Below, piece after piece: positions 6,464 through 29,103 of a DNA stretch of 29,211 bases; the first letter of the stretch is position 1, and each line of letters starts with the position of its first letter. Below the pieces are notes generated by a model, which was not told where the DNA came from, searched no databases, and was given only the letters and a program-made list of their open reading frames with translations. The stretch is from a virus (taxonomy: Duplodnaviria > Caudoviricetes), in IMG/VR virus record IMGVR_UViG_3300025803_000071, positions 1 through 29,211 of that record, one strand, 5' to 3'. A program made the position numbers and the translations under genes.

Positions 6464-6916
6464 TTAATATAAATGCAGAATATCTTCTGGTTTTGCTATT
6501 GTTGCGATGATTTCATCATCATTCAAAATACGGTGTTCACCATATTTTGTTTTAAATCTAGAACCGGCATATCTACCGTAGATTACAAATTGCCCTTTAC
6601 TACACCAAGGACCTTTTGGAAATTTTTCTTTATCCTGATAACAAAGATCACCCATCTCAACAACTAAACCAACTACGGTTGTCATCTGAATAGTTTCACT
6701 TGCTGTATCAGTTAAAATAATTCCACCTTTAGTTTTTTTAGGTCCTGAATAAGGTCTAACTAAAAGTCTATATCCAACTGGTTTTGGTATAACGTCTAAG
6801 TATTTTTTAATACCTTCTGGGTCAGTAGGTATGGCTTGTTCTTTTGATTCTGGTGTAGCCTCACCATTTTTTTTGATCCCGACTAAAGGATCAGGTTGTA
6901 TTATCGTCATCGACAT
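6464..6916 (-). CDS. groES: Co-chaperonin GroES (Cpn10) homolog with N-terminal extension
   Basis: PVGYRLLVRP..KTKGGIIL..G.VVEMG..YGRYAG..ILNDDEIIA. Confidence 0.92.
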   Translation of the reverse strand: MSMTIIQPDPLVGIKKNGEATPESKEQAIPTDPEGIKKYLDVIPKPVGYRLLVRPYSGPKKTKGGIILTDTASETIQMTTVVGLVVEMGDLCYQDKEKFPKGPWCSKGQFVIYGRYAGSRFKTKYGEHRILNDDEIIATIAKPEDILHLY

Positions 6917-7700: not shown

Positions 7701-8081
7701 CTACTTTCGTTTTATTAAATCTGTAGCTTTAAGTCCGTAAACACTCGCGATGACACCTACAAAAATTGTTTGATACCAGAAAGGAAGTTGCGAAAAATAT
7801 TCGAAGAAAAGCTTCATCTTTTCCATCGCAGTTGGATCATCCGAAAATACTGCCCAACTTAACATTACGATAGGAGCTGAGAGCAATAATAAAATGAATT
7901 CGTCTTTCCAGTCCGATTGTCTTGCTTCTAATAATTTACCCTCGTAAGCTATCTCTCCCGCTCGCATCTTTTCTGCGTGCAGAAGTTGTGCATCCGACAT
8001 TGCTTGTTTGGTTCTTTGCTTGTTCTGATATAAGTGGGCTCCAGTTTTTAGGCCCATTCCCAATAATTTTAACCACATCAT
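7701..8081 (-). CDS. Holin-like membrane protein
   Basis: SDWKDEFILLLLSAPIVMLSW and LPFWYQTIFVGVIASVYG hydrophobic helices; basic C-terminus. Confidence 0.75.
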   Translation of the reverse strand: MMWLKLLGMGLKTGAHLYQNKQRTKQAMSDAQLLHAEKMRAGEIAYEGKLLEARQSDWKDEFILLLLSAPIVMLSWAVFSDDPTAMEKMKLFFEYFSQLPFWYQTIFVGVIASVYGLKATDLIKRK

Positions 8082-8397
8082 AATATTGTTTTTGTCTTCT
8101 TTTACCTAAATAAGGTAACATTTCCTCCATAAAGTGTAAAGCACGATAGCCTTTTAACCAAAATCGCCAAACTTGTTTGTGATGTTCTTTTTGTTTTTTC
8201 TTTTTTTTATGAATATTTCCATTTGTTTTAAAATAATATTGAAATCTTTTGACGACATCTTCATCTGTCATCTGTACTTCTAGTACAGCTGAAGGCGTCC
8301 ACCCATTTGGTCTTTTATTAACACCAAACCAACCTTCACCTTCAAATATACCAGCTAAAAAAATTAATTGTTCTCTTTTTGAGAGATTTTCAAACAT
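7936..8397 (-). CDS. Free-standing single-motif LAGLIDADG endonuclease
   Basis: FLAGIFEGEGWF, VQMTDEDVV, MLPYLGKRR; 3' end overlaps the holin-like gene by 146 nt. Confidence 0.85.
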   Translation of the reverse strand: MFENLSKREQLIFLAGIFEGEGWFGVNKRPNGWTPSAVLEVQMTDEDVVKRFQYYFKTNGNIHKKKKKQKEHHKQVWRFWLKGYRALHFMEEMLPYLGKRRQKQYYDVVKIIGNGPKNWSPLISEQAKNQTSNVGCTTSARRKDASGRDSLRG

Positions 8398-27120: not shown

Positions 27121-27365
27121 TTCTTTTTTTTCATGTCTTTAAGTTTAAGTATTTCTAAATCACAATAGTGTTTAATCTTTTCTAAATCCTCGATACCATT
27201 TTTATTCATATATCTACAAACATATTTAATTACGTTGCCTTGGAAGAACGTTAAATTGTTTTTACTAATAAATTCATAAGGCTGTATACGAAACTCCTTA
27301 TAATGATTTCCGCCAATCTGTTTACTTTGCGGAAAAGCTTCTTCTAATAAATCTTTATTCGTCAT
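27117..27365 (-). CDS. DUF3310-like protein (T7 gp1.7/SaV-like)
   Basis: QIGGNHYK..IQPYEFI..GNVIKYVCRY..KNGIEDLEK; start at ATGA overlap. Confidence 0.85.
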   Translation of the reverse strand: MTNKDLLEEAFPQSKQIGGNHYKEFRIQPYEFISKNNLTFFQGNVIKYVCRYMNKNGIEDLEKIKHYCDLEILKLKDMKKKK

Positions 27366-28174
27366 ACACCACACATCCCTTCACATTCTTGATTAAATAA
27401 ATCTGGACCCTCATCATCTTTGAACTTAACCTCATCTAATGGTACACATTGTCGATGTACAAAGTTTTTAACTTTAGGGTTATGCATACGCATCTTTTTA
27501 TCAAATTCTACAGCAGATGCAAATTCTTTCGGACGGTTGTCTCTCATATCAATCCAAAACTTATCATCATGAAATGGACATCCAATGCATGCACTCTTAA
27601 CTGGTATTTTAAATCCTTTACCTTCATACCATTTTAAACAATCCTCTCTTGACATTTTTTTATCTATCAATGGCCATACATTTTTCTGCCACCAAAATCT
27701 TGAAGGCTTCATACGCATAATTTCATCAGTTGATATACCAACCCAAACTTCTACAAATTCTGTTTTTGGAAATCTTTGTCTTGGTTTAAGTCCACATAGT
27801 TCTCTAATCTTTTTAGCAATCGGAGTAATCTTGTATTCTCTTGTACATTGTCTTCTACCCATACCTTTCTTACCTTGTTCGTTTAAAGTATAGAATGGTG
27901 CAGAAGCAAATTGATTACCACCTGGTGCGAGAGCCGTGAGGATGTCATCTTGGATATTACCTTTCTTAACTAAATACACAGGATAACTTAATACTGACTT
28001 TAGATACTCTAAATGTTTTATTACAGGTTCAGGTTCCCAACCCGTATCAGCGAAGATAGCTGCGTCTGGCTTTACACCAAACTCTCCAGCATCTGCCATC
28101 AAGGCCATTGTAGAGCTTTGTACTCCTGCTCCAAGGCTTAGTATTCTTAGTTTTGGTTCTTTGTTACTTTCCAT
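27362..28174 (-). CDS. PAPS-reductase-like / adenine nucleotide alpha hydrolase, Cys-rich
   Basis: SLGAGVQS PP-loop variant, FADTGWE, RQCTREYK, KSACIGCPFH, C-terminal ECEGMCGV. Confidence 0.85.
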   Translation of the reverse strand: MESNKEPKLRILSLGAGVQSSTMALMADAGEFGVKPDAAIFADTGWEPEPVIKHLEYLKSVLSYPVYLVKKGNIQDDILTALAPGGNQFASAPFYTLNEQGKKGMGRRQCTREYKITPIAKKIRELCGLKPRQRFPKTEFVEVWVGISTDEIMRMKPSRFWWQKNVWPLIDKKMSREDCLKWYEGKGFKIPVKSACIGCPFHDDKFWIDMRDNRPKEFASAVEFDKKMRMHNPKVKNFVHRQCVPLDEVKFKDDEGPDLFNQECEGMCGV

Positions 28175-29103
28175 ATTGCCCTTCCTATTTCTTCTGCGAT
28201 TTGCGGGACGATAGAGTTTCCCAATGCTTTAAGTCGGTATACCCGCCCGGGTACCCCATTAGCCACTCTACCCACATTGGGTTCAAACTCCCACCAACTT
28301 TTTCCCCTAGATTGCTCTTGCCTCGATCTACCTTGCTGTCCTTGTACATAAACTCTCTCGGTGTCGGCCACATTATGTTTGGATGTGCTACTTGATCGTT
28401 CAAACTGATTGGCATTTTCTTTTCTACTTTCATCTGCATTCTTTTTGCTGAGCTTGCTCCCCTGTCGCAATGTGCGTCTGGAGTTCTCCATAACCTCATT
28501 GTTTCTGGATCCACTTGCTCTCTCAGATTCGATGGTCTCGTTCTGCCTTTCCTGTGCCCCTGCATTAATTTCATTGTTCCCTCTTTTGATCTTGGAGGTA
28601 AGTGATCCATTGTGTTTGGAGTAGCCCACAATCCAGACTCTGTCTCTTTTGTGGGGCGCGCCGACGCCTGCAGCTGGAATAACAAACGTTTGGACTTCGA
28701 AGCCTTCACTTTCCAAATCAGAGCACACTGTCTCGAAGACCATGCCGTCTTGGATGTTAATAAGACCTCTGACATTTTCTGCAATAATGAAGGTGGGTTG
28801 GACTTCTTTAATGACTCTAAACATTTCTGGCCAGAGATATCTATCGTCATTGGTTCCTTTTTGTTTTCCTGCAACGCTGTAGGGCTGGCAGGGGAAACCA
28901 CCTGTGAGGATGTCGACTTTTTCTTCGATGTCCTTTCCTTCCAATTTCTTAATATCATTATATATCTTAACTCCTTTCCAATGTTTTTGCAGCAACAATC
29001 TGCAGTATTCATCTCTTTCACAAAATGCTATTGTTTTAAATCCTACCTTTTCTAAGGCTAAACTAAATCCACCAATACCACTAAATAGATCTAAATGATT
29101 CAT
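28147..29103 (-). CDS. C5-cytosine DNA methyltransferase (alpha chain)
   Basis: Motif I DLFSGIGG, IV GGFPCQPYS, VI ENV, VIII PHKRDRVW, X LGNSIVPQ; motif IX not found in this frame. Confidence 0.93.
   Translation of the reverse strand: MNHLDLFSGIGGFSLALEKVGFKTIAFCERDEYCRLLLQKHWKGVKIYNDIKKLEGKDIEEKVDILTGGFPCQPYSVAGKQKGTNDDRYLWPEMFRVIKEVQPTFIIAENVRGLINIQDGMVFETVCSDLESEGFEVQTFVIPAAGVGAPHKRDRVWIVGYSKHNGSLTSKIKRGNNEINAGAQERQNETIESERASGSRNNEVMENSRRTLRQGSKLSKKNADESRKENANQFERSSSTSKHNVADTERVYVQGQQGRSRQEQSRGKSWWEFEPNVGRVANGVPGRVYRLKALGNSIVPQIAEEIGRAIWKVTKNQN
28185..28850 (-). CDS. Nested alternative-frame methyltransferase beta chain (target-recognition repeats plus motif IX)
   Basis: Frame open for 278 codons; WATP/WRTP/WPTP repeats; LNPMWVEWLMGYP resembles motif IX; AAGGA upstream of ATG 28850 (start uncertain). 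Confidence 0.75.
   Translation of the reverse strand: MTIDISGQKCLESLKKSNPPSLLQKMSEVLLTSKTAWSSRQCALIWKVKASKSKRLLFQLQASARPTKETESGLWATPNTMDHLPPRSKEGTMKLMQGHRKGRTRPSNLREQVDPETMRLWRTPDAHCDRGASSAKRMQMKVEKKMPISLNDQVAHPNIMWPTPREFMYKDSKVDRGKSNLGEKVGGSLNPMWVEWLMGYPGGYTDLKHWETLSSRKSQKK

Follow-up and report, generated by a model that had tools for sequence, protein, structure and literature searches.

A phage C5-cytosine methyltransferase gene whose overlapping +1 frame encodes motif IX and a variable cassette of putative target-recognition modules

M.EcoHK31I of Escherichia coli is a heterodimeric C5 methyltransferase acting on the sequence YGGCCR. According to the accessible parts of two publications, its alpha chain comprises motifs I-VIII, motif X and the recognition domain, and its beta chain supplies motif IX (PMC2836561, PMC3404938). 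The available text of the latter source also places the target-recognition domain of canonical C5 enzymes in the variable region and describes M.AquI as an enzyme whose second chain contains the distal variable region together with motif IX (PMC3404938). In the C5 enzymes of Bacillus phages, as stated in the available sections of the corresponding papers, tandem recognition domains are located between motifs VIII and IX, address several targets and provide protection from several restriction systems (PMC8936443, PMC12707154). A literature search that reached few subscription or older papers returned no report of a nested module array, and the accessible parts of PMC6070908 and PMC8919816 make no mention of a nested chain. 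The phage enzyme described here resembles a hybrid between M.EcoHK31I and the multispecific enzymes of Bacillus phages, and departs from each of them in one defining feature.

The analyzed window, i.e., the whole 29,211-nt stretch of viral DNA, encodes terminase, portal, major head protein and a family A DNA polymerase, as revealed by the scan of its open reading frames (ORFs); a Cpn10-like co-chaperonin and a LAGLIDADG-like protein are encoded among the head genes (6464-6916 and 7936-8397, minus strand). The minus-strand ORF at positions 28147-29103 encodes a C5-cytosine methyltransferase catalytic chain of 318 aa, hereafter alpha (PF00145, E-value 8.9e-57; phrog_363). It contains the words FSGIGG, GFPCQ, ENV, HKRDRV and LKALGNS, which are motifs I, IV, VI, VIII and X, respectively, in the numbering of the C5 methyltransferase family. 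All signature motifs of PF00145 (FxGxG of motif I, PC of motif IV, ENV of motif VI, R-x-R of motif VIII, and motif X) are present in alpha. Motif IV, which contains the catalytic Pro-Cys pair (28885-28899, minus strand), and motif X (28213-28233, minus strand) were located by motif inspection and alignment; residues P71, C72, E109, N110, R153, R155, G295 and N296 are invariant across 107 aligned sequences. Inspection of the window translation revealed no motif IX in the alpha frame, where a polar stretch lies between motifs VIII and X instead. The profile match and motif inspection thus agree with the first-pass annotation, in which motifs I-VIII and X of a C5 methyltransferase, but no motif IX, had been noted in the main frame. 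No restriction endonuclease was recognized among the 25 scanned ORFs of the window, the contig of which stops 108 nt upstream of the alpha gene, and word counts in the window revealed no clear target motif (CG occurs at 0.63 of expectation).

The +1 frame of the same strand stays open over 280 codons from stop to stop (28185-29027), or 278 codons as counted from GTG 29021. It encodes a second chain, beta, likely of 257 aa (28185-28958, minus strand), matching phrog_1008 ‘DNA methyltransferase’ with an E-value of 6.3e-20. In this chain, an N-terminal part (about 109 aa, 28632-28958) that overlaps motifs III-VIII of alpha is followed by module A (LWATP...NLREQV, 46 aa, 28494-28631), module B (LWRTP...SLNDQV, 40 aa, 28374-28493), module C (MWPTP...NLGEKV, 29 aa, 28287-28373) and the motif IX stretch LNPMWVEWLMGYP (28248-28286), all on the minus strand. 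The 278-codon frame with these four elements was found where the preliminary description had located it. Three modules are indeed present, as that description had claimed, but instead of being plain repeats they are divergent protein modules sharing their ends only, and a single DNA repeat (21 nt, 71%) links two module starts. The assignment of motif IX is based on invariant alignment columns and on single-chain relatives, where it precedes motif X; it forms a high-confidence helix in the model of one such relative (P0136). Otherwise, beta had no match in Pfam or NCBIfam and nothing significant among the sequences of solved structures, neither of the two beta forms checked is present as an exact sequence in the protein collection, and the matches in the ESM Atlas are restricted to viral clusters without names. 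The model of beta alone (pLDDT 61, pTM 0.33), in which two helices and a beta-hairpin are predicted with low confidence for the N-terminal part, matched nothing in Foldseek (E ≤ 0.001) or VIA (Z ≥ 5) searches.

The beta chain of the window resembles that of M.EcoHK31I in being nested wholly within alpha, in an alternative frame, and in supplying motif IX. The suggested parallel with M.EcoHK31I is nevertheless partial, because the recognition domain of the latter is assigned to alpha and its beta has no modules, whereas in the window the alpha variable region is unconserved and the modules belong to beta. A published primer led to an EcoHK31I-like allele that is present in 73 of the 5426 E. coli genomes searched. 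It encodes a 309-aa alpha and a 176-aa +1-frame beta without W-x-T-P modules and has a NotI-family nuclease as its neighbour; its beta N-terminus gave a weak in-register alignment with the window family (E-value 0.0018, probability 15%). The EcoHK31I-like beta starts after motif V and bears a classical motif IX without modules, and its gene is part of a chromosomal restriction-modification pair, whereas the window gene is carried by a phage. Tandem arrays like that of the window, where modules are about 40 aa long (median 41), occur in the enzymes of temperate Bacillus phages (SPR, phi3T, H2 and their kin), but these are single polypeptides encoded in one frame, while the window array is overprinted in a second one. 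As compared with M.AquI, in which motif X belongs to the small chain, motif X of the window enzyme stays in alpha, and alpha must therefore remain open across the whole cassette.

Among annotated phages, the gp49/gp50 pair of phage Diva is labelled ‘internal gene’ in GenBank without a function, and gp50 is a member of the beta family. In phage MM1, annotated as having ‘C5 methyltransferase alpha/beta subunit’ genes, the nested ORF stops before the recognition region and alpha retains its own motif IX, unlike the window alpha; the beta profile had no match to MM1 alpha. Shorter nested ORFs over motifs III-VIII were observed in MM1 (locus L155, 1652-2077) and in a Bacillus thuringiensis plasmid (locus L361, +1 frame of 1495-2367). 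They end with a word similar to L.DILEE.V..KY.LS, which the SPbetaL2 enzyme has in its main frame. Possibly, dual-coded C5 methyltransferases form a broader family, to which those of MM1 and the B. thuringiensis plasmid would belong.

Both overlapping frames are under selection. In the window, synonymous recoding of the beta codons gives 11.4 expected stops in alpha over the cassette, with none observed, while the third frame contains 11 stops versus 8.9 expected. Across 89 representative loci (chosen at <80% identity), the +1-frame stops, totals of which were added by hand from per-column values, numbered 255 before alpha residue 63 versus about 245 expected from synonymous codon choice, and 2 beyond alpha residue 62 versus about 440 expected. 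Recoding of beta over the 89 cassettes gave 569 expected alpha stops, with about 1.3 of the 89 remaining open by chance; because the representatives were prefiltered for an open alpha, the fair observed figure for alpha openness is 203 of the 207 loci surveyed below. The third frame of the same 89 cassettes contains 513 stops versus 373 expected. Values of pN/pS were obtained as uncorrected pairwise counts between related sequences, namely 57 close homologs that provided, for each region, 35-44 distinct segments of equal length. For alpha versus beta, the values were as follows: N-terminus, 0.26 versus 1.23; dual region, 0.36 versus 0.58; module A, 6.3 versus 0.08; module B, 2.35 versus 0.18; motif IX, 0.83 versus 0.15; and the part starting with motif X, 0.18 versus 1.51. 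The switch between frames is large despite the uncorrected counts. The N-terminal part of beta is under purifying selection in both frames in the stretch tested; the alpha variable region (28297-28626, minus strand), likely a passive linker, is maintained open, yet its protein sequence is not conserved where tested (modules A and B). Stop avoidance, frame-specific pN/pS and open homologous loci agree with the initial proposal that both frames must be kept open.

With beta as the query, at least 598 homologous stretches were retrieved from viral contigs and 313 from genomes of prokaryotes, and the exact degenerate motif IX pattern is estimated to occur in about 3600 stored viral stretches. From 361 loci, 280 pairs of motif IV and motif IX were obtained, 212 of them unique; 83 entries were left out, one motif being missing in the available DNA or under the patterns used. 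Motif IX is in the +1 frame relative to alpha in 207 of the 212 unique loci. In all 207, the +1 frame is open from upstream of the catalytic PC; alpha is open through motif IX in 203 and reaches motif X in 200. Since most homologs were gathered through beta, which biases the prevalence, 80 loci found by alpha alone were also checked. The first-pass annotation had named closure of the nested frame in most homologs as an argument against its proposal; the frame was open in all 76 complete loci of this set, all of them near relatives, the other four being incomplete. The same layout is found in cultured phages of Paenibacillus, Lactobacillus and Mycobacterium, and near-identical copies of the window gene are present on other contigs. 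Its words were recovered at 63-74% in 14 freshwater DNA sequencing runs and at 24-44% in four RNA runs; contigs from two RNA runs span parts of the gene and are uninformative on transcription or frame, and joints at the cassette borders have short sides and may derive from other relatives. A PAPS-reductase-like gene overlaps the alpha end in the window (27362-28174, minus strand; phrog_424, E-value 1.9e-49). A functional tie with it is not supported, the two genes adjoining in 46 of 48 near relatives but in 5 of the 89 representative loci.

Comparison of homologs bore out the predicted variability of the cassette. The 200 intact loci contain 554 modules, from one to six per locus, in 143 arrangements; they fall into 189 types, a number depending on the chosen clustering threshold. 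Modules of types A, B and C occur in 79, 68 and 19 of the 200 loci, respectively, and 51 of the 74 types seen at least twice occupy more than one slot. The modules, with conserved ends and hypervariable middles, are tandem exchangeable units positioned between motifs VIII and IX, in the window in the second chain. The cassettes of all 48 near relatives start with types A and B and exhibit 11 arrangements, the slot of module C being the position that differs. Long beta chains have 3-9 module starts, and in 105 of 120 a module start lies beyond motif IX. In a quickly built tree of 89 alpha cores, the distribution of module A (14 rows) took 11 changes, at least seven of them forced by well-supported branches, and 20 of 500 shuffles were equally low in changes; it is consistent with module A having been repeatedly gained and lost, or exchanged. 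By eye, a module type with a long helix-turn-helix-like insert was noticed in the beta chain of locus L058 and in proteins P0006, P0007 and P0035, where it sits in the cassette or past motif IX. In one variant (L293), the modules are in the +1 frame and motif IX is in the alpha frame before motif X.

Single-chain relatives indicate what the modules may do. Eleven of 121 proteins examined contain motif IV, T-P module starts, motif IX and motif X in one chain, although frameshift errors may be behind some of them; ten further relatives have modules, motif IX and motif X with the catalytic core missing, which matches the M.AquI layout. The order of elements in the single chains means that the modules occupy the variable region holding the canonical target-recognition domain. 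In P0128, motif IV with an insert and the motifs up to VIII are followed by five modules, motif IX of the family type and motif X; the insert, situated within motif IV at the catalytic cysteine, is intein-like (PF13403), and the first modules, including a module-A-like stretch, align to those of the window with 31% over 120 aa. P0128, P0130 and P0178 belong to clusters of two to three members, and P0136 is a singleton. Compared as a whole, the model of P0136 (pLDDT 82, pTM 0.82) matched M.HhaI (Z 22.9, 251 residues, 3.5 Å); its last module is moderately ordered (pLDDT 63-78), and the first one has pLDDT below 50. The profile of module starts gave no score above shuffles against the recognition domains of SPbetaL2, MM1 and EcoHK31I-like enzymes; its best hits, with shuffle-level scores, fell in the SPbetaL2 and MM1 enzymes on words containing T-L or T-I. 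In place of the T-L of the SPbetaL2 enzyme, the window modules start with T-P. Judging from the single-chain relatives and their modelling, it is probable that the modules serve as DNA target-recognition units. In P0124-P0127, beta-like segments are in frame with an N6/N4 methylase or a primase-polymerase, which may be read-through gene calls.

Taken together, these sequence data make it highly probable that the window gene encodes a two-chain C5 methyltransferase in overlapping frames. The example of M.EcoHK31I, together with the single-chain relatives, gives good support to a heterodimer of alpha and beta, in which beta, produced separately from ATG 28958 using its own ribosome-binding site, would fold onto alpha and contribute motif IX and a small domain, the alpha variable region acting as a passive linker taking motif X past the cassette. 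By analogy with the Bacillus phage enzymes, a single module would read DNA at any time, and up to three motifs could thereby be methylated. Methylation of several motifs would shield the phage genome against several host restriction systems, and gain, loss or swap of a module would alter the set of protected sites. An anti-restriction purpose of the enzyme is likely by the same analogy. The full reading, a two-chain multispecific enzyme with each module recognizing one DNA sequence, appears to us the reasonably probable one.

Silent recognition domains occur in Bacillus phage enzymes, and the two-chain enzyme of the window might likewise be monospecific, with one active module, likely the last one adjacent to motif IX, and the others kept as a silent reserve. 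The P0136 model, ordering its last module only and that moderately, and the variability of the last slot among near relatives would agree with such an arrangement. On the other hand, the non-terminal modules A and B are subject to strong purifying selection in beta (pN/pS 0.08 and 0.18, see above), module types are found in different slots, and the low model confidence of the first P0136 module may reflect the alignment of unlike types; we consider a silent reserve unlikely. The modules could also be basic DNA-binding or processivity units, jointly providing one relaxed or near non-specific activity, in line with the absence of a significant sequence match to classical recognition domains and with the modules located past motif IX, outside the usual slot, in 105 of the 120 long beta chains. 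However, the 189 types, which are conserved at their ends, hypervariable in between and exchanged as whole units, are compatible with selection for diverse specificities, module A is scattered over the alpha tree, and a multispecific enzyme with separated recognition domains is named by title in the references of PMC8936443, in the part of that source available. Non-specific binding units are, in our opinion, quite improbable.

Separate production of beta presumes a start within the alpha gene. The first-pass annotation had tentatively put it at 28850; stop avoidance, Shine-Dalgarno (SD) sequences and start-codon counts instead favour ATG 28958, which would yield the 257-aa product. This upstream ATG is present in all 48 near relatives, whereas the internal ATG (28848-28850, minus strand), likely not the main start, is a start codon in 24 of them. 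About 85 of the expected +1-frame stops of the 89 representatives fall upstream of the 28850 position, where two are seen; in the window, the chance of zero stops from 28958 to 28850 is 0.003. The likely ribosome-binding site of beta, AAGGAG (28971-28976, minus strand), lies 12 nt before ATG 28958, a spacing on the long side. SD sequences of at least 5 nt precede 39 of the 108 ATG or GTG codons situated 20-75 nt before motif IV, versus 3 of 73 at the 28850 position, 1/166, 4/300 and 5/390 in other controls and 19/261 in the third frame. The start zone is devoid of ATG and GTG in 11 of the 89 representatives, and ATG 28958 is also a by-product of the Asn-Asp codons of alpha. The SD and start-codon statistics thus favour a separate initiation of beta at an internal start, of which 28958 is the likely one.

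If beta were reached instead by ribosomal frameshifting from alpha, a fused chain would be formed without separate initiation, for which natural in-frame fusions of core and modules and the long SD spacing of the window could be taken as hints. Yet the +1 frame is open and conserved over motifs IV-VIII, a region in which the product of a frameshift would depend on the alpha residues, the enrichment of SD sequences is directly upstream of the start zone, and motif X would require a second shift, all of which makes frameshifting very unlikely. The idea that the nested frame only shadows alpha without coding for protein, or results from faulty assembly, with alpha being a degenerate monomer, as the failure of beta to match Pfam, NCBIfam or an exact protein copy might suggest, is contradicted by stop avoidance, beta-frame pN/pS, hundreds of independent loci, near-identical contig copies and cultured phage carriers, and has a negligible probability.

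In many distant relatives, the beta chain bears an additional N-terminal word. The pattern QL[STD][LM]F is present at the beta N-terminus in 22 of the 89 representatives versus 0.27 expected under synonymous recoding of alpha, and a looser pattern in 40 versus 1.4, also in GC-rich loci; QLTLF-type examples are the beta N-termini of loci L198, L182, L177 and L154. The word resembles the sliding-clamp-binding motif, described as QL(S/D)LF and placed at C-termini in the available part of PMC9690074; in the third position of the beta word, T is commoner than S or D, and the word may instead have a structural role. It is absent in the window, which reads KSTSS, and in all 48 near relatives. A link between loss of QLxLF and a neighbouring PolA gene was tried and dropped, since the underlying counts (word present in 1 of 6 loci with PolA in the flank versus 39 of 83 without) are confounded by clade and short flanks. 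As a tentative and rather doubtful extension, the whole specificity program of this large and mostly unannotated family might reside in the overprinted chain, with modules of 30-45 residues, each for one motif, being traded across the phages of distant hosts, and with a clamp-binding QLTLF that would anchor the enzyme to the replisome of the host, present in many members and lost in the DNA-polymerase-encoding clade of the window.

This family of phage enzymes is widespread. Gene callers usually give alpha only, and recoding of the gene for expression would destroy beta, after which the enzyme would be called inactive. If each module sets specificity, a mere 200 loci of the family already provide a natural collection of about 190 short recognition units, and the code relating recognition domain to DNA would be directly testable through module swaps. 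As a case of dual coding, the gene exhibits, within one kilobase, selection that acts first on one frame, then on both, then on the other and finally on the first again, and its single-chain, split and nested forms are all extant for comparison.
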